Shown here piece after piece: positions 20,404-62,795 of a stretch of 62,795 nucleotides of DNA (positions within the stretch are counted from its first letter, which is position 1; every line of letters starts with the position of its first letter). The notes beneath the pieces are model-generated. The model saw only the letters and a list, made by a program, of their open reading frames with translations. It did not search any database and was not told the origin of the DNA. Origin of the DNA: an uncultured Candidatus Saccharibacteria bacterium (GTDB lineage: Bacteria; Patescibacteriota; Saccharimonadia; Saccharimonadales; CAZICT01); assembly GCA_964537935.1 (NCBI GenBank), contig CAZICT010000005.1, positions 1 to 62,795 on the forward strand, given 5' to 3'. Made by a program: the position numbers and the translations under genes.

Positions 20404-23286
20404 ATGCAGCGCTACAATCCAAAAGACATTGAACCTAAGTGGCAAAAATCATGGGCCGAAGCTGAGCTTTATAAAGCGGTTGATTTTGACGAATCGCGTC
20501 AAAAATACGTAATGCTTACAGAGTTTCCGTATCCTTCGGGCGACGGACTGCATCTTGGACATGTCCGGGAATATACTCTTGGCGACATTATGGCGCGACA
20601 CAAGCGCATGCTTGGCTACAACGTTCTTTATCCGATGGGCTATGATGCCTTTGGCTTGCCGACCGAGAATTTTGCCATAAAGAATAAAATCGCACCACAG
20701 CTAGCTACCGAACGTAATATAAGTAATTTTCGCAAGCAGTTTGATAGCCTTGGTTATAGCATAGACTGGAGTCGTTCGTTTTCCACTACAGACCCGGATT
20801 ACTACAAATGGACCCAGTGGCTTTTTTTGCAATTCGTAAAAGCCGGGCTGGCATATCAAGATGAGATTGCAATTAACTGGTGTCCAAAATGTAAGACAGG
20901 GCTAGCCAACGAAGAGGTGGTAAACGGCCGACACGAACGTTGTGATACTCCTGTAGAAAAAAAGCTTCTCAAGCAATGGTTGCTGAAAATTACCGACTAC
21001 GCCGACCGCTTGATTGATGGACTCATGAGCGTTGACTACCCGCCTCGAATAGCCGATCAACAGATTAATTGGATCGGCCGAAGTCGCGGAGCTGAGATTA
21101 TTTTTGATGTCCAAAATTCCGAGCATAAAATTACCGTTTTTACGACTCGGCCTGATACCTTGTTCGGTGCAACTTTCATGGTTATAGCCCCCGAGCATCC
21201 TCTGGTAGATAAACTGACAGCGCCAGAAGAAAAGTCAAAGGTAATAGATTACGTAAAGGCCGCAGAGGCTAAGAGTGAAATTGAGCGCCAAGACACCGAC
21301 CGAGAAAAGACAGGCGTGTTTACCGGTTCATACGCGATTAACCCAATCAACCAGCAAAAAATCCCTATCTGGGTGGCGGATTACGTGCTTATGGGTTACG
21401 GCACAGGAGCGATTATGGCGGTGCCTGCCCATGATGAACGGGATAATGACTTCGCATCTGTTCATAATCTGCCAGTGGTAACTGTCGTTGAGCCAGTCAG
21501 CGGCAAAAAACAGGGGGATGAAGTCGAAAAAGATGCCATAGTGGCGGTCGTGCATAACCCAAAAACTGATGAATACTTAATGCTTGATTGGGGGCCGCGT
21601 CAAGACCGTTTTGGCGGAAATCTATTCATTGGTGGCGGTATGGATGAAGGAGAAGATCCGGTTAAGTGCGCCGAACGCGAGATAGCCGAAGAAACAGGCT
21701 ACACCAACGTTAAGCACATTACGACACTACCCTATGTCGTCCACAGTTACTACTATTCAAACGTTAAAAACAAAAACTATTATGCAAAAATGCACGGACT
21801 ATTATTTGAGCTGGTAGATGACAGTAAATCTGAACTGGCGCTTGATGAGGGCGAGAAAAATAAATTCAAACCATTTTGGGTAAACCGTCAAAAAGCGGCT
21901 CAGCTGGTAGACGATGACGGCCATAGCTATATATTCGAAGCTTTAACCGACAGCCTGCACTATACCGGCGAAGGAATAATGACTAATTCCGGCAAATATG
22001 ATGGTACATATTCGAGTGAGGCGAGAGAGCAAATCGTTAAGGATCTTATAAAGGAACGCAAAGCCAAGGAGCGTACCAATTATCGATTGCGTGACTGGAT
22101 CTTCAGCCGGCAACATTACTGGGGCGAACCAATACCTATTATCCATTGTCGAAAAGACGGTGCCGTGCCCGTACCTGATGATCAGCTTCCGGTAACACTG
22201 CCAGAAGTAGATAATTACGAGCCGACCGATACGGGCGAAAGCCCTTTGGCGGCAATAGATGAGTGGGTAAACGTTTCCTGTCCGATATGTGGCGGGCCGG
22301 CCAAACGCGAAACCGATACTATGCCAAACTGGGCAGGCAGCAGCTGGTATTACTTACGTTACTACGATGCTCGCAATGATCAGGCATTCGCTGACCGCGA
22401 AAAGTTGGATTATTGGGGTGCGGTAGATCTGTATTTGGGCGGAATGGAACACACCACCCTACACCTTCTCTACTCGAGGTTTTGGCATCAATTTTTCTAT
22501 GACCAAGGATTGGTACCCACACCTGAGCCATATCAAGCGAGACGAGGGCAGGGTATTGTTTTGGCGACTGACGGCACAAAGATGAGTAAAAGCAAAGGCA
22601 ATATAGTAAATCCGACGGATATCATCGACCAAGGCTATGGAGCTGATGCTTTGCGTGTGGCGATTGCTTTCTTGGCGCCATATGATCAGACCACGCCATG
22701 GAGCCCGGAGGGCGTGGCTGGAACTTATCGTTTCTTAAACCGCATTTGGACGTTAACGTTTGAATACCTGGACAGCGATACAAAAGATAAAGATGATAAA
22801 TCAAATACACTAGCAAAACTGACGCATCCGATAATAAAGAAAGTAAGCGAAGATTTGCATGACATGGCTTTTAATACCGCAATTTCGGCACTCATGGAGC
22901 TCACTAATGCACTATATAAACACAAAGCCGCACACGGCTATGGAGATTCTGCCTGGCGAGATGCTTTATTAACGTTAATTAAGCTTACTGCGCCGTTTGC
23001 TCCTCACATGACCGAAGAATTATGGCAACAACTTGGTCAGAAAGGGTCCGTACACGTTAGCGACTGGCCGATGTGGGATGATAAATTCCTGAAAAGTGAT
23101 ACGATTACAATCGCAGTACAGGTTAACGGCAAAGTACGGGCCGAAATAGATCTTCCGTCAGATATAACTGAAGAGAAAGCCCTGCAGATAGCCCGCGAAA
23201 ATAAAAAGGTGGCCGGATATTTAGCCGACCACCCGGTAAAAAAAGCGATTTACATACCTGGGAAAATTATCAACTTCGTGATTTAA
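20404..23286 (+). CDS. leuS: leucine--tRNA ligase carrying an inserted Nudix domain
   Basis: HLGH (HIGH-type), KMSKS, editing-domain motifs TTRPDTLFG and GTGAIMAVPAHDERD. A perfect Nudix box lies at aa 411-433 (nt 21634-21702). Confidence 0.95.
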   Translation: MQRYNPKDIEPKWQKSWAEAELYKAVDFDESRQKYVMLTEFPYPSGDGLHLGHVREYTLGDIMARHKRMLGYNVLYPMGYDAFGLPTENFAIKNKIAPQLATERNISNFRKQFDSLGYSIDWSRSFSTTDPDYYKWTQWLFLQFVKAGLAYQDEIAINWCPKCKTGLANEEVVNGRHERCDTPVEKKLLKQWLLKITDYADRLIDGLMSVDYPPRIADQQINWIGRSRGAEIIFDVQNSEHKITVFTTRPDTLFGATFMVIAPEHPLVDKLTAPEEKSKVIDYVKAAEAKSEIERQDTDREKTGVFTGSYAINPINQQKIPIWVADYVLMGYGTGAIMAVPAHDERDNDFASVHNLPVVTVVEPVSGKKQGDEVEKDAIVAVVHNPKTDEYLMLDWGPRQDRFGGNLFIGGGMDEGEDPVKCAEREIAEETGYTNVKHITTLPYVVHSYYYSNVKNKNYYAKMHGLLFELVDDSKSELALDEGEKNKFKPFWVNRQKAAQLVDDDGHSYIFEALTDSLHYTGEGIMTNSGKYDGTYSSEAREQIVKDLIKERKAKERTNYRLRDWIFSRQHYWGEPIPIIHCRKDGAVPVPDDQLPVTLPEVDNYEPTDTGESPLAAIDEWVNVSCPICGGPAKRETDTMPNWAGSSWYYLRYYDARNDQAFADREKLDYWGAVDLYLGGMEHTTLHLLYSRFWHQFFYDQGLVPTPEPYQARRGQGIVLATDGTKMSKSKGNIVNPTDIIDQGYGADALRVAIAFLAPYDQTTPWSPEGVAGTYRFLNRIWTLTFEYLDSDTKDKDDKSNTLAKLTHPIIKKVSEDLHDMAFNTAISALMELTNALYKHKAAHGYGDSAWRDALLTLIKLTAPFAPHMTEELWQQLGQKGSVHVSDWPMWDDKFLKSDTITIAVQVNGKVRAEIDLPSDITEEKALQIARENKKVAGYLADHPVKKAIYIPGKIINFVI

Positions 23287-33630: not shown

Positions 33631-35604
33631 ATGTTAGGAAGATTAACGCTCGACGCTTTGCCAAAGGATCCGATTGTATTGTTTGGCGTACTGACGATGA
33701 TGCTTGGTGGCCTTGGTGTGGTAGCGGCTCTGACTTATTTCAAGCGCTGGAAGTGGTTATGGAAAGAATGGCTAACATCTCTAGACCATAAAAAAATCGG
33801 AGTCATGTACATAGTTGTGGCTGTTTTAATGCTACTGCGCGGCCTGATGGATGCTTCTATGATGCGTGCCCAGCAGGCGCTTGCGGTCGGTGAATCTCCC
33901 GGTATTTTATCTTCGGATCACTTTCAGCAAGTGGTTACCGCTCACGGCACCATAATGATTTTCTTTGCCGCTATGGGGCTGATGTTCGGAATAATTAACC
34001 TGGTTTTGCCTTTGCAGCTTGGTTCCCGGGACGTGGCTTTCCCTTTCTTAAACTCCACCAGTTTCTGGCTGTTTGCCATGGGTGCGGTACTAATCAATAT
34101 ATCGCTTGGCATCGGAGAATTTGCCGCTACCGGCTGGCTGGCCTATCCGCCGCTTTCCGGGCTTGAATACAGCCCGGGGGTCGGAGTGGATTATTGGGTC
34201 TGGGCCTTACAGATATCAGGTGTGGGAAGTTTGCTGTCCGGAGTTAACTTCATAGTAACAATCATAAAAATGCGCGCACCTGGCATGACACTCATGAAGA
34301 TGCCGATATTTGCCTGGAGCGTGCTTGTAAGCATGCTTTTAGTCATCTTTGCATTCCCGATTCTTACAGCCACACTGGGCATGCTCGGGCTTGATAGGTT
34401 GCTTGGTATGCATTTCTTTACGTCTAGTTTTGGCGGCAATCCGATGATGTACGTTAACCTTATTTGGGCTTGGGGTCATCCGGAGGTATATATTTTGGTA
34501 TTACCGGCCTTCGGTATATTCTCCGAAGTCGTTGCCACATTTTCGCGTAAGCGGCTTTTCGGATATCCATCAATGGTAGCGGCCCTGGTGGCTATTACCG
34601 TATTGTCGTTTATTGTATGGCTGCATCATTTCTTTACGATGGGTGCCGGCGCCAACGTGAACGCGTTCTTTGGAATAATGACGATGATAATCGCTGTGCC
34701 CACCGGTGTAAAAATTTTCAACTGGCTGTTTACGATGTATGGAGGAAGGATACAGTTTAAGACTCCGATGTTGTGGTTTTTGGGTTTTGTGTTTACGTTT
34801 ACTATCGGTGGGGTGACCGGAGTATTGATGGCCGTGCCGGCGATTGATTTCCAGGTTCACAACAGTCTGTTTCTTGTGGCTCATTTCCATAATGTGATCA
34901 TCGGCGGCGTTGTGTTCGGCTACTTCGCGGGCCTTACTTATTGGTTTCCAAAGATATTTGGCTTTAAGCTAAACGAATTTCTGGGTAAATGTGCCTTCTG
35001 GTGCTGGGTTGTAGGGTTTGCAGTGGCATTCATACCTCTCTATGCTCTAGGACTTATGGGCGCTACCAGGCGTCTGGATGGATATGATGAATCACTGGGC
35101 TGGCAATGGCTGTTTATTGTGGCTGGCGTTGGGGTAATGATAATTATCACCGGTGTGATATTCCAGGTATTGCAGTTGATAGTTAGCATCATTCAGCGTA
35201 AGGCAAACCGGGACTTGACCGGCGATCCTTGGGACGGCCGTACCTTGGAATGGTCGCTGCCTTCACCGGCACCGTTTTATAATTTTGCCGTCATACCCAA
35301 GGTTCATACCCGTGACGCATTCTGGGAAATGAAACAAACAAAGGCCGGTGATAAACCCAAGAAACCTGTCTATTCAGATATACATTTACCAAAAAATACG
35401 CCCATGGGACTGTTTATTGCCGTAAGCAGCTTGGTGATTGGATTTGCCTTAGTTTGGCATATCTGGTGGCTGGCGCTGATTGGTTTGCTGGCTCTTATTG
35501 CATGCATTATCGTTAGAACTTCCGATGATAATACGGAGTACACCATAACTGCCGCGGAAATAGAGAAATTGGATAAAAAGTATAGCCGGAGACAGTACGC
35601 ATGA
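33631..35604 (+). CDS. cyoB: heme-copper quinol oxidase subunit I
   Basis: [31 protein letters not shown]. 657 aa, polytopic. Confidence 0.95.
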
Positions 35605-59122: not shown

Positions 59123-62100
59123 CTAACCTTGGAGTTCTACTGGCGCATAGTTCAGGTCTTTTACAAACTTATGTATCTCTTCCACGGTTCTTACTTTTCC
59201 GTCAGATTGTGCCTTAGCATATCCGCGAATAGCTATATTAAAAGCAGCCTGTAAATCCGCATCGGCAATATGATGACAATCAGTGTACGGACATACGAAT
59301 ATGGCGATATTACCTCTAGGCTTACCGGTTCCAAACTTTTGGCTAAGTTTTCCCCAATTTTTTCGACGCTTGACTATCTCCATGCCAAGTCCCTCGTCGT
59401 TCGGTCGCATGGCTTTATAAATCAAAATCTTTAAATCTTTACCCTTAATTACTCTCTTCGTATCTTGTTTGCCTAGTAGTCGAATTTCACCATCGGTGAT
59501 CGCAGTCTTAAGTAGTTTGTCTTCGTAGGTTTCAAGCTCATAATTGCTATTAATATCTATTGCCAGGCTTGCCCATCGCTTACATCTGCTGCATGTTTGC
59601 GAGGTTCCGGCGGCAGTCATCTCAAGTCCCCAATTGTTGGCGCCGAAGTCTCCCCAGGCCATCTTGTTGGCAGGGTTATTATCTTTCTTGCGAATATCGG
59701 CGCGTTTCACAGAATTGTACACTCTGCTAATTCTTGATCCGCCGGCTTCAAAAGCGCTGACTTCGTACTCAAAGCTCAATCTTGCATTTTTGCGGACAGC
59801 TAAATCTTCCAGTTGATTTCGATAAGTTCCAATGAGGCTTTCTCTGATTCTAGCGATTCTGGTATCAGATGAATTGAAAGTTGCTCGAACCTGATTTTCA
59901 CGCAACCTTTTTACGGCGCTTTTCAGTTTCTGTTGCTGAGGATCTGCTATGAAACCGCTCTCAAGTTGATCGATTATACCATCGTTAGCCTCGATCAAGT
60001 TCCAGGCTAAGCCGTATTCTCCAATATCGACCCCGATAAATCGGTTTTCAGCCGTTCGAGTTCCTTTACTCCGTGGCTTTATCTCGAACGGCTGACTTAC
60101 AAAAACTCGCGGGTCAGAAATTTTTGATATCTGCGGCCTATCGCCAGACCAGTCCAGCTCGATTGTCTTTTCAGCTATGCAGAATGCGCCGCCAGCTCCC
60201 AATTCAGTTTTCTTACGGTTGTGCAGACCCATAAACCAATCTAGAAATTGAACTTGATACTTGCTGGAGCGCACTTCGAGCGCCGGCGCCAAAGATACTC
60301 TTTCTCGCAAGTCGGCTTTAGTAAAGTTATAAGTTTTATTAAACAAGGTAATCTCACTACGTTGGCCGAACTTATCAGGCAACAGTGCGTATACGTATCG
60401 ATTGTTCCTTATACCAAGGTTGACTTGACCGCCATTCACGGCTTGCAGTGTACTTCGAGTTATGAATTTACGTCGTGAAATCAGGCTACTATAACCGCCT
60501 AGGTTCGAATGCATCAATACGACTTCACGTTCTTTGTCGCTACCTCGTACCAAAGCCGATACGACAATTTTAGACAAATGTACGGTGTCTCGCAGCAGAT
60601 TGTTTTCCTGCGGTGTGCTCTTAGTCTTTTCGTACAGGTCACCTAATTCAGATAATTCGACCAGCCTAGACACGCTGATTTTGTTTTCAATCGCTAGTTG
60701 AGAAACCTTTGTGCGCTCGTAACCGGATACAAAAAAGCGCTTTCTTTCGTTTCGGTCGGCGAATTTAACGCGCAATTCGCGCTCGATAGTTTCAAGACGT
60801 CTTTTGATTTCAGGGTCTCCATCGCTGCTTATGCGTTGCCATAGTACAGCCAGCATGTCTACTTGTTTGTCGGTGATTTCGTAGTCGTCGAATCGCTCCT
60901 TAATTACAGTTTCAAGCTTTTTAATATCTTCACGAATAAGCTCCTTGAGGTTTAGTAGTTTTTTCCATAACGCGTACTTATTTTCTCCAAAGAAAAGCGG
61001 GGAACTTTGAATGCGTTTACTTAACTGTCTTTGCCAGCCAGCCGGTAATTCATTCTCTTTGTTGTTTTGGCTCCACTCGTTCAAATCGGTTTTTAGTGTC
61101 GCCAAGTAACTTTCCAGTTCGTCGCTGAATCTACGGTCTATCTTAGCGCCATGGTCTCTCAAAAAATCCAAAGTCTCCGCCAGGATACCCTCTTTTATGT
61201 TATTACCACCGGGAAGCGCATCGCTAATGTTCTTTAAAAGTTCCCTAAGCCCACCTGTTACTTCACCGGTCTTTTTGTCGATCTTGCCGTCAAGCTGCTC
61301 CAATGCAGCTTCTTGTTTGGATACCCTGTTGCTATACCAGCTCTCGACAGTACCGTTGAAATCACTGCGATAATCACTCCACTTGTTGACTAGTTTTGAG
61401 TCGTCAATCTTATCAGCAAGTTTTTTAAGCTCACCAAGCCTGTTTCTTATTTCGGCAAATTCATTGAAGCCATATGTGTCATCTAAGAACTTTGCTACAG
61501 TGTCGATATCTTCCTGCTTAAGGCATGTCAGCAGATTGCCGAATACACCGTTAAAGTAATTGCCGTTATCGCCGATCGCCAGAAATCTTTTTGTCTGCGC
61601 GGCGTCGATTCGACTTTCGTAGAAATCGACGATTCTATCCATAAATTCAGTTCTGTCGTCGCAAGCGATCACCGGGAAGCTCGGGTCCAGCGCAAAGCTA
61701 AGAGTCATGCTACGTTCAGGAAGCTTCGGCACAGGAATTGCGAAAATCGTACATTTGAATTCTAACTGGTCCTTGTCGAGGCTAAAACCTTCCGACCATT
61801 TTTTGGCTATCTTTTCCATAACCGCCGGATCAACACTTTTCTTTACAAGGTTAAATATGATCTTTTGCCGTTGTTCATCGGTCTTTCTCTCAACACCGCG
61901 ATGAGCTTTGATTAAGAACTGGCAAAAAGCTTGCTCATCAACGACATCCTTGATAGACGCTGCAAGTTTGTTATAGCAGTTTTGCCATATCGTCTTTTTG
62001 CCTAAATACCCCAGGAACTCATTCTCTATGCTGTTCTGGTTAGAGAATACAAAGCCAAGCGACAATGCTTTTAGCCAAAAATCCATCAGGCTAGGAGAGT

Positions 62101-62293
62101 TGTCGTGTGTCAGAAACTCATCGAAATTGATTGGACCGTAAAGGGTGCGATAATCGCTGACTATAGCTTCAGCTACTTCGTTTCTAAGACCTACACCCCC
62201 CTCAATGTCAACGAGTTCATATTTTATTGAACGCATCGAACCGGTGCCTCCCGAGTAGGCAATCCGTTGGTCGTGAAGTCGATAACCTTTCAT
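59123..62293 (-). CDS. cas12d: type V CRISPR effector, Cas12d (CasY)-like, 1056 aa
   Basis: C-terminal split RuvC: I = RFIGVDIGEYGLAW (D756, nt 60026-60028); II = ARLSFEYEVS (E842, nt 59768-59770); III = HHIADADLQAAFNIAIRG (D1011, nt 59261-59263). Zn ribbon C901xxC904 ... C1001x4C1006 lies between II and III. No HNH domain. The N-terminal ~750 aa has no known motifs. The gene is 146 nt from a CRISPR array. Confidence 0.8.
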   Translation of the reverse strand: MKGYRLHDQRIAYSGGTGSMRSIKYELVDIEGGVGLRNEVAEAIVSDYRTLYGPINFDEFLTHDNSPSLMDFWLKALSLGFVFSNQNSIENEFLGYLGKKTIWQNCYNKLAASIKDVVDEQAFCQFLIKAHRGVERKTDEQRQKIIFNLVKKSVDPAVMEKIAKKWSEGFSLDKDQLEFKCTIFAIPVPKLPERSMTLSFALDPSFPVIACDDRTEFMDRIVDFYESRIDAAQTKRFLAIGDNGNYFNGVFGNLLTCLKQEDIDTVAKFLDDTYGFNEFAEIRNRLGELKKLADKIDDSKLVNKWSDYRSDFNGTVESWYSNRVSKQEAALEQLDGKIDKKTGEVTGGLRELLKNISDALPGGNNIKEGILAETLDFLRDHGAKIDRRFSDELESYLATLKTDLNEWSQNNKENELPAGWQRQLSKRIQSSPLFFGENKYALWKKLLNLKELIREDIKKLETVIKERFDDYEITDKQVDMLAVLWQRISSDGDPEIKRRLETIERELRVKFADRNERKRFFVSGYERTKVSQLAIENKISVSRLVELSELGDLYEKTKSTPQENNLLRDTVHLSKIVVSALVRGSDKEREVVLMHSNLGGYSSLISRRKFITRSTLQAVNGGQVNLGIRNNRYVYALLPDKFGQRSEITLFNKTYNFTKADLRERVSLAPALEVRSSKYQVQFLDWFMGLHNRKKTELGAGGAFCIAEKTIELDWSGDRPQISKISDPRVFVSQPFEIKPRSKGTRTAENRFIGVDIGEYGLAWNLIEANDGIIDQLESGFIADPQQQKLKSAVKRLRENQVRATFNSSDTRIARIRESLIGTYRNQLEDLAVRKNARLSFEYEVSAFEAGGSRISRVYNSVKRADIRKKDNNPANKMAWGDFGANNWGLEMTAAGTSQTCSRCKRWASLAIDINSNYELETYEDKLLKTAITDGEIRLLGKQDTKRVIKGKDLKILIYKAMRPNDEGLGMEIVKRRKNWGKLSQKFGTGKPRGNIAIFVCPYTDCHHIADADLQAAFNIAIRGYAKAQSDGKVRTVEEIHKFVKDLNYAPVELQG

Positions 62294-62351
62294 TAATCTC
62301 TCAGCGTCAATCTGAAGACCCGTACTTTACATGTGTATCAAGGTATCTGGT

Positions 62352-62422
62352 AAAAAGGCTAAAGTGTACGCCTTTAAGTACACCGGAAAATCCCAGAATT
62401 TAAGACTATAGAGGCTAAAGGC
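62352..62422 (-). ncRNA. candidate anti-repeat (scoutRNA/tracr-like) RNA between the cas gene and the array
   Basis: The plus strand carries ctATAGAGGctAAAGGC (62406-62422) and AAAAAGGC (62352-62359), which copy the crRNA-sense repeat AAUAGAGGAAAAAAGGC. A minus-strand transcript would therefore be complementary to the repeat. Hairpin gtgtac/gtacac at 62364-62383. aggctaaag occurs twice. No expression data. Confidence 0.35.
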
Positions 62423-62439
62423 AGTTTAAAAACAAAGTC

Positions 62440-62795
62440 TAATCTACGATTCTATTTTTCGAGGTGAGTTCCTAACGTTCTTGCCTTTTTTCCTCTATTT
62501 TTCGAGGGGTCTATTTTTAGACAGTTGCCTTTTTTCCTCTATTTTTCGAGGCTAGCTGAATAGCCTCGCGGCCTTTTTTCCTCTATTTTTCGAGGCCGAA
62601 GCTATGTTGTAGGGCCTTTTTTCCTCTATTTTTCGAGGCCTCAACAGTTCGGTGCTGCCTTTTTTCCTCTATTTTTCGAGGACTCTAATAACTGGCGGTG
62701 CCTTTTTTCCTCTATTTTTCGAGGATCCCGTAGTTTGCTATTGCCTTTTTTCCTCTATTTTTCGAGGCTAGCTGAATAGCCTCGCGGCCTTTTTT
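62440..62795 (-). CRISPR. CRISPR array with 25-nt repeats and 18-19-nt spacers, truncated by the window end
   Basis: Seven identical full repeats gccttttttcctctatttttcgagg start at 62483, 62527, 62571, 62614, 62657, 62700 and 62743. A partial eighth starts at 62787. A degenerate repeat at 62440-62464 keeps 14 nt (tctatttttcgagg). Spacer lengths are 18, 19, 19, 18, 18, 18, 18, 19 nt. The minus-strand orientation is inferred. Confidence 0.95.

Follow-up and report, generated by a model that had tools for sequence, protein, structure and literature searches.

A type V-D CRISPR-Cas locus in a Saccharimonadales contig, with a predicted scoutRNA gene and a possible leader-trailer helix

The stretch of DNA analysed here, referred to as the window (the full 62,795 nucleotides of contig CAZICT010000005.1 from an uncultured Candidatus Saccharibacteria bacterium), in all likelihood (a probability of roughly 0.9) carries a chromosomal type V-D CRISPR-Cas locus of a Saccharimonadales bacterium, a member of the candidate phyla radiation (CPR). 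The locus lies on the minus strand, where the array, the scoutRNA gene and cas12d follow one another in this order, and its upstream end is cut by the contig end. An earlier reading of the sequence by a model (the original prediction) had proposed a Cas12d/CasY-like effector beside an array with very short spacers. Cas12d as a family, with its short spacers, its scoutRNA and its occurrence in CPR hosts, is already known, and the locus itself is ordinary. New here are the scoutRNA gene, which had not been spotted earlier, the correction of a catalytic residue to D1013, a caveat concerning an assembly overlap, the likely position of cas1, and a lead towards a leader-trailer stalk.

The effector gene and its characteristic residues are located as follows.

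59123-62293, minus strand: cas12d (casY) gene, an open reading frame (ORF) with an ATG start encoding 1056 aa, matched by NCBIfam and PADLOC models
60026-60028, minus strand: codon of RuvC-I D756, within GVDIGEYG (residues 754-761)
59768-59770, minus strand: codon of RuvC-II E842, within LSFEYE (residues 839-844)
59255-59257, minus strand: codon of RuvC-III D1013, within ADADLQAAFNIA (residues 1010-1021)
Residues 901-904 (CxxC) and 1001-1006 (Cx4C), located in the translation: zinc ribbon C901/C904/C1001/C1006

The identification as Cas12d was borne out by the Cas12d profile searches. Over its full length the 1056-aa protein scored 861 bits (E 1.5e-258) against the NCBIfam Cas12d equivalog NF033951 (cut-off 250), the PADLOC Cas12d model gave an E value of 3e-145, and several relatives bear the NCBI name Cas12d, in metagenome-assembled genomes (MAGs) of Saccharibacteria or 'Nomurabacteria'. 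In a large protein collection 30 relatives were found at E <= 1e-5, the nearest being 73% and 68-69% identical, and an exhaustive HMMER search of 1.84 billion cluster representatives returned 240 clusters at E <= 1e-3, 149 of which also passed E <= 1e-30. The exact protein is recorded only from the window's own contig, the nearest other sequence being 73% identical, and an exact look-up gave no other contig carrying an identical protein from which the locus could be extended.

The predicted ORF and the motifs with D756, E842 and the CxxC and Cx4C pairs were recovered at the expected residues. The place of the RuvC-III motif was also right, but its catalytic residue, given as D1011, was off by two. 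The invariant Asp is D1013, which matches the Asp of Cas12c2 'HADENAAVNI' in a search of PDB sequences. D756, E842, the four cysteines and D1013 are all invariant across 27 aligned homologues, and both the RuvC triad (D756/E842/D1013) and the Cys4 zinc ribbon are intact in this full-length Cas12d. As anticipated, no HNH or further Pfam domain was found in a Pfam scan of the protein, where the sole match was a Cas12f1-like TNB tail (PF07282, residues 997-1020) below cut-off. The N-terminal region had been suggested to be perhaps divergent enough to define a new subgroup. This was not upheld, since the region is kept across the Cas12d relatives in the 27-homologue alignment and residues 1-335 align with a CasY.1-like protein (locus L038) at E 6e-20.

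The public gene call starts at M20 (1037 aa), 19 codons too late. Residues 1-19 (KGYRLHDQRIAYSGGTGS, window 62237-62293) are conserved in homologues, and M1, with its ATG at 62293, is for this reason the likelier true start. The Shine-Dalgarno sequence of the M1 start (GAGAG) is weaker than the AGGAGG of the related locus L001.

The structural check named in the original prediction gave a concordant picture. An AlphaFold2 model built from the 27-sequence alignment (predicted local distance difference test score, pLDDT, 85.6; predicted template modelling score, pTM, 0.73) has a full recognition (REC) lobe, recovers the RuvC fold and matches Cas12 folds in the PDB, with Cas12c1 (7vyx; E 9e-24, template modelling score, TM, 0.55) and Cas12c2 (7v94) on top, followed by CasX and Cas12a. 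The V-C effectors Cas12c1 and Cas12c2 (7vyx, 7v93 and 7v94) are thus the best full-length structural matches (TM 0.53-0.55), with a sequence identity to the window protein of ~14-15%. The PDB copy, searched by both sequence and structure, held no Cas12d structure, and the sequence search gave a marginal Cas12c2 match only. Cas12c is likewise scoutRNA-dependent, and an affinity between Cas12c and Cas12d has been reported (PMC10691335).

The best studied point of comparison is KbCas12d, that is CasY.1 from Katanobacteria, a type V-D effector that is active with a CRISPR RNA (crRNA) and a scoutRNA, recognizes a 5'-TA protospacer-adjacent motif (PAM) and loses cleavage upon the substitution D827A or E913A (KbCas12d preprint). 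The window protein is shorter (1056 aa versus 1125 aa, as worked out from the length of the KbCas12d gene, 3378 bp). Compared with the CasY.1-like protein of L038 it shows ~32% identity over residues 664-1025 and ~25% over residues 1-335. Closer relatives are the NCBI-annotated Cas12d proteins from Saccharibacteria and 'Nomurabacteria' MAGs (P0009, P0022, P0026 and P0029, with 53%, 41%, 38% and 31% identity, respectively) and two unannotated metagenome proteins (P0002, 73%; P0003, 68-69%). These MAG and metagenome relatives belong to the same clade and share with the window the order of the locus, repeats that are nearly identical (CCTCGAAAAATAGAGG..AAAAGGC) and a homologous scoutRNA.

Two other readings of the effector were weighed against these data. 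A V-C (Cas12c) effector, or a TnpB-like transposon nuclease merely lying beside a repeat array, would account for the weak Cas12c matches (55.5 bits for NCBIfam NF033950; PADLOC Cas12c E 9e-38), the Cas12f/TnpB-type TNB tail and the Cas12c-like structure. We give this reading next to no weight, as the Cas12c score is far under its cut-off of 250 whereas the Cas12d score is 3.4 times the model's own cut-off, the repeats and spacers are of the V-D type, and a protein of 1056 aa with a full REC lobe contrasts with the ~400 aa of TnpB. A TnpB/IS200-IS605 identity, which the original prediction had named as the competing explanation, is excluded: the locus has neither transposase neighbours nor insertion-sequence ends or other flanking terminal or inverted repeats, and the TNB tail stands alone below its cut-off. 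Very improbable, too, is a DNA-binding, non-cleaving or regulatory Cas12 resembling some Cas12c proteins rather than a cutting nuclease. The nearest solved folds are those of Cas12c1 and Cas12c2, and reports on Cas12c range from cleavage to transcription repression (PMC11127173, table), but the window protein is a Cas12d and not a Cas12c (861 versus 55 bits), characterised Cas12d enzymes cut double-stranded DNA, with cutting by KbCas12d abolished by the two substitutions above, and the catalytic triad is invariant in homologues. A cutting Cas12d nuclease hence remains the preferred reading, and the array next to it is of the kind expected for such an effector.

62465-62795, minus strand: CRISPR array of seven perfect 25-nt repeats CCUCGAAAAAUAGAGGAAAAAAGGC and one truncated copy, cut by the window end
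Starts at 62483, 62527, 62571, 62614, 62657, 62700 and 62743: the perfect repeats, 25 nt each, reading GCCTTTTTTCCTCTATTTTTCGAGG on the plus strand
62787-62795: truncated eighth repeat, running into the window end
62440-62464, minus strand: degenerate terminal repeat, reduced to the 14 nt of its 5' part CCUCGAAAAAUAGA (62451-62464), with the AAGGC 3' end lost
62465-62482, 62508-62526, 62552-62570, 62596-62613, 62639-62656, 62682-62699 and 62725-62742: seven distinct spacers
62741-62795, no strand assigned: terminal 55-nt duplicate, identical to 62525-62579

The repeat and spacer lengths agree with those predicted (seven perfect repeats of 25 nt; five spacers of 18 nt and two of 19 nt). The 146-nt gap reported between cas12d and the array holds to the degenerate repeat, whereas the first perfect repeat lies 189 nt away. 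Read as its reverse complement, the repeat forms the predicted 4-bp CCUC/GAGG hairpin (-5.7 kcal/mol, z-score -5.5), the arms of which covary among relatives (CCUC/GAGG, CCCC/GGGG, CACC/GGUG and CUCC/GGAG). The likeness to CasY repeats suggested earlier was confirmed. The 20 related loci have repeats of 25-26 nt with a 4-5-bp 5' hairpin and an AAGGC 3' end, and spacers of 17-20 nt; the CasY.1 system, the effector of which falls in the same hidden Markov model (HMM) family, shares the 25-26-nt repeat, the 5' hairpin, the AAGGC 3' end and the 17-19-nt spacers, the last being the spacer length described for V-D (KbCas12d preprint). The CasY.1 crRNA used experimentally consists of the repeat cuccgaaaguaucggggauaaaggc and an 18-nt guide, a form common to the window repeat. 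By this comparison short spacers are the norm of Cas12d loci and no peculiarity of the window locus.

By comparison with its relatives the array is transcribed on the minus strand, with the degenerate repeat at its oldest end, because this repeat is proximal to cas12d, array and cas12d lie on the same strand in ~20 loci, and the validated CasY.1 crRNA has its repeat 5' and its spacer 3'. The last spacer, CTAGCTGAATAGCCTCGCG, is only seemingly a repeated one. Its second copy is most likely a contig-end assembly overlap, since the terminal 55 nt of the window duplicate 62525-62579 exactly. A length of 55 is a common largest k-mer of assemblers. Alternatively, the duplicate may be a junction between array variants in the population.

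Between the array and cas12d lies the predicted scoutRNA gene.

62342-62401, minus strand: scoutRNA gene, from covariance models, covariation, fold and layout
62393-62397 paired with 62346-62350: scoutRNA stem P1
62378-62384 paired with 62363-62369: scoutRNA stem P2, 7 bp with an 8-nt loop
62352-62359: single-stranded scoutRNA anti-repeat GCCUUUUU

Cas12d depends on a scoutRNA with short complementarity to the repeat, and nearly all related loci place the array immediately before cas12d on one strand, a conserved element separating the two. Covariance models were used because MAFFT alignments of the scout elements fell out of structural register. A model (R1) seeded from three loci only, all outside the window (L005, L007 and L011), gave a single significant match in the whole window, at 62342-62401 on the minus strand (31.7 bits, E 2e-4), and model R2 scored 55.8 bits at the same element. 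R1 recovered 17 elements in 16 sources (the window and 15 related loci), all directly upstream of cas12d except for two copies in L021 downstream of the array. In the resulting alignment, which was fitted to the covariance model, 98% of the cells are paired, compensatory changes occur in 13 of 13 pairs and 92 cells are compensatory, compared with 26 in shuffles; shifting the pairing partners abolishes the signal. An independent MAFFT alignment analysed with RNAalifold recovered P2 with compensatory changes in 7 of 7 pairs, and the minimum-free-energy fold of the scoutRNA has the same P1/P2 structure.

The layout of the element (P1, UUUCC, P2, UUAGCCUU, P1') is that of scoutRNA1, which supports cleavage by KbCas12d, although the window scoutRNA differs in a longer P2 (7 bp, 8-nt loop) and in an anti-repeat of 8 nt versus ~5-6 nt. 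On the CasY.1-type scout of L038 model R2 gave a weak score (E 0.16), yet its top match was at the right place. The anti-repeat GCCUUUUU can pair with the final 8 nt of the repeat (3' end AAAAAGGC), and in other loci the match extends over 5-10 nt; in Cas12c the repeat:anti-repeat pairing is made up of three short duplexes of 4-7 bp (PMC11246509). By eye, the scout of L011 carries GUCUU where the sole repeat copy seen in that locus ends in AAGAC, which looks like a compensatory change between two RNAs. No Rfam family was found for the scoutRNA, either at gathering or at E-value threshold. A conserved AAAU/TAAAT sequence directly 5' of P1 was considered as a -10 box and dropped, since P1 covaries and must hence be transcribed.

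The scout follows the last repeat of the array in three differing gene orders, which suggests that it is co-transcribed with the array. In L021 the order is cas12d, cas1, array and then two tandem scoutRNA copies (2749-2805 and 2861-2915), and in L019 it is array, a minimal scout without P2 (4700-4745), cas1 and then cas12d. A second copy of the scout motif UUUAGCCU is seen in the window between the degenerate repeat and the scoutRNA (62407-62420, plus strand TATAGAGGCTAAAG); this 14-nt match (86%) may be a leftover from a scout duplication or a coincidence. In eight distant relatives of 22-29% identity (L035-L037, L039, L041 and L044-L046) the 330 nt upstream of the cas12d-like gene, the stretch examined, contain no repeats but do contain a conserved structured element built of a long outer stem, UUUCC, a hairpin and UGCCUU, which could be the scout-like RNA of another sub-clade.

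The remaining interval between the scoutRNA and cas12d contains the last RNA feature of the locus.

62306-62343, minus strand: trailer, the predicted 3' arm of a leader-trailer helix, with the core CCUUGAUACACAUGUAAAGUAC at 62322-62343

In each of the 18 related loci with linear gene order in which both sides were visible, the block from the scout to the cas12d start is the reverse complement of the leader before the first repeat, and leader-trailer complementarity is also found in L019 and L021 with their other gene orders. The CasY.1-like locus L038, which has the same order of array, scout and cas12d, shows this pairing too. Both arms were seen in L001, L005-L012, L014, L015, L018-L022, L026, L028, L034, L038 and L052, and the 3' arm alone in the window. 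The arms, of 20-45 bp, bracket array and scoutRNA. The leader arm stops 0-7 nt before repeat 1, and, where a scout was located, the start of the trailer arm falls within a range from 7 nt before to 16 nt past the point at which the model's match to the scout ends. Duplex energies at the 18 loci range from -20 to -48 kcal/mol, with z-scores of -3.4 to -8.2 against shuffled trailers, except for L014 as the weak case (-20.2 kcal/mol, z-score -1.1). Cognate leaders and trailers pair with a mean of -35.3 kcal/mol, compared with -17.1 +/- 5.4 kcal/mol for non-cognate pairs, and the cognate pair ranks first in 13 of 13 rows and in 12 of 13 columns. The sequences of the helix are unrelated between clades while cognate complementarity is kept; within Saccharibacteria not only the pairing but also the sequence of the motif TGTACATTTACAATCTGTTATCAAGG is conserved. 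On the cas12d-sense strand G-U mismatches (54) exceed A-C mismatches (17), which favours an RNA helix on that strand.

The window trailer pairs well with the leaders of relatives (L001, -33.5; L052, -32.8; L005, -28.5 kcal/mol). Within the window it pairs neither with the terminal-repeat region nor with the visible array, and its leader partner is therefore predicted to lie beyond position 62795. The leader arm would be expected to read approximately GTACTTTACATGTGTATCAAGG, within ~7 nt of the first repeat.

We tentatively propose, at somewhat less than even odds, that in Cas12d loci, and probably in the window too, array and scoutRNA form one precursor in which the 5' leader and 3' trailer close into a co-evolving 20-45-bp helix. 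This helix would act as a processing or stabilising stalk of the kind known from rRNA operons, as a candidate RNase III site, and would separate the guide cassette from the cas12d mRNA downstream. The likeness to the long flanking helices of rRNA operons, which are cut by RNase III, is an analogy only. Shared features are a long-range helix of ~20-45 bp around a non-coding RNA cassette and co-evolving arms, whereas the cargo here would be a CRISPR array and a scoutRNA. In the published long scoutRNA forms it is the 3' tail that corresponds to the trailer arm. The shortest scoutRNA form, without the tail, is the most active one in vitro (KbCas12d preprint), which fits a role of the trailer arm in biogenesis and not in cleavage. 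We found no description of a leader-trailer stalk in the literature searched, a search that did not extend to the original scoutRNA paper.

Unlikely, in our view, is that the leader/trailer inverted repeat works instead at the level of DNA, its arms being either a duplicated protein-binding site or the termini of a mobile array cassette. The complementarity is as visible in DNA as in RNA and the sequence of TGTACATTTACAATCTGTTATCAAGG is itself conserved within Saccharibacteria, in line with such a role. On the other hand, clades with unrelated sequences retain cognate complementarity, the 54:17 bias towards G-U concerns the cas12d-sense strand, and in three gene orders the helix is found at an unchanged position with respect to the first repeat and the 3' end of the scout.

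A course of events for the window locus can be drawn from established work on Cas12d and Cas12c (Harrington 2020 as summarised in PMC11127173, PMC7889808 and PMC9723637; KbCas12d preprint). Transcription of the array would start from the leader past position 62795, and the primary transcript would close into the leader-trailer helix around array and scoutRNA, which, on our own comparative data, is probably a processing or stabilising stalk. The scoutRNA would pair with every repeat, Cas12d would bind the scout:crRNA pair, and the precursor would be trimmed to a repeat with an 18-19-nt guide. The complex would then locate PAM-flanked double-stranded DNA (5'-TA/TG in characterised orthologues), and the RuvC site would cut the target DNA, with collateral cleavage of single-stranded DNA. 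New spacers would be added by a lone cas1, expected right past the array as in 14 related loci.

Several points weigh against an intact and active V-D locus with these RNA parts. We infer the activity of the window orthologue from other Cas12d and Cas12c proteins, and the helix counts stem from kin loci and not from independent events. The fold of the scoutRNA is by itself not significantly stable (z-score -1.3), so that the case for it rests on covariation, and scans for sigma-70 promoters and terminators gave nothing above shuffle background, nor any promoter for the scoutRNA. Among all seven spacers and the repeat, which served as queries in a scan of IMG/VR, two of the seven spacers had exact matches (spacer 1 in one contig, spacer 6 in two near-identical contigs), which is the chance level for 18-mers, and the 5' flanks of these matches are TC and CG instead of TA/TG. 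No cas1 was found in the 62.8-kb window by tblastn, where the contig ends inside the array; the leader is also beyond the window, and the nearest relative (73% identity; L001, L002 and L027) has an 85-aa N-terminal remnant of Cas1 and four spacers.

Spacer 6 (ACCGCCAGTTATTAGAGT) is found exactly at L050 4897-4914 and L051 5667-5684, with the 5' flank CG, in a phage tail-region gene right after the tape-measure gene. The IMG/VR matches, including spacer 6 as the sole repeated one, were judged to be chance. No self-target was found within the window at <=2 mismatches.

The Cas1 remnant has to be seen together with the other loci. A Cas1 family protein of ~340 aa (TIGR00287, E 3e-19) is encoded upstream of the array, in divergent orientation, in 13 related loci, and an intact cas1 is present at the canonical place also in L052, a relative of 69% identity. 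The fragment in L001 (9314-9571, minus strand), encoded by a small ORF upstream of the four-spacer array and found also in L002 and L027, is 61% identical to the Cas1 of L005 over 88 aa (E 2e-27). As the closest relative keeps only this truncated Cas1, loss of adaptation does, to judge from these loci, occur in the lineage of the window locus. The window locus might accordingly be decaying or adaptation-less, with cas1 lost or truncated and the array frozen, serving fixed-target defence or heading to loss. Besides the 73% relative with its Cas1 fragment and four spacers, the lack of cas1 within the window and of convincing protospacers speaks for this. We regard it as quite improbable, though, since the window stops inside the array and cas1 may lie right beyond, the next relative, L052, retains an intact cas1 where it is canonically found, at least seven distinct spacers are accompanied by perfectly conserved repeats, and nuclease residues, scoutRNA and trailer arm have all been preserved. 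The preferred reading is still that of an apparently intact locus truncated by the contig end.

The surroundings of the locus are chromosomal, with genes for LigA, LeuS and cytochrome bo3 subunit I and tRNAs in the window, and the neighbours of cas12d encode a HEAT-repeat protein, a DUF6624 protein, an ABC transporter and a response regulator. The best named relatives of LeuS are 69% identical and come from Candidatus Saccharimonadales, and by this comparison the host is a Saccharimonadales bacterium of the CPR, in agreement with the CPR-like host suggested earlier. LeuS (20404-23286, plus strand) has a NUDIX-hydrolase domain inserted at approximately residues 381-488, and a PF00293 match is likewise seen in nearly all full-length Saccharimonadales LeuS homologues listed. 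The window also encodes CyoB, cytochrome o ubiquinol oxidase subunit I (33631-35604, plus strand; 1093 bits), and its presence in a Saccharimonadales contig suggests that this CPR genome has a terminal oxidase for using or detoxifying oxygen.

With this locus the family gains a compact Saccharimonadales Cas12d (1056 aa) that seems intact. With repeat, guide length, scoutRNA and anti-repeat mapped, direct reconstitution would be possible, and given its confident model (pLDDT 85.6) this small protein, if well behaved, could serve structural work on a family of which the PDB copy searched held no member. If the stalk is true, what has been published as the '3' extension' of the long scoutRNA would belong to the stalk as one of its arms and not to the functional scoutRNA, and if the helix is real it would bear on the production of guide RNA in V-D systems and on the design of minimal expression cassettes.

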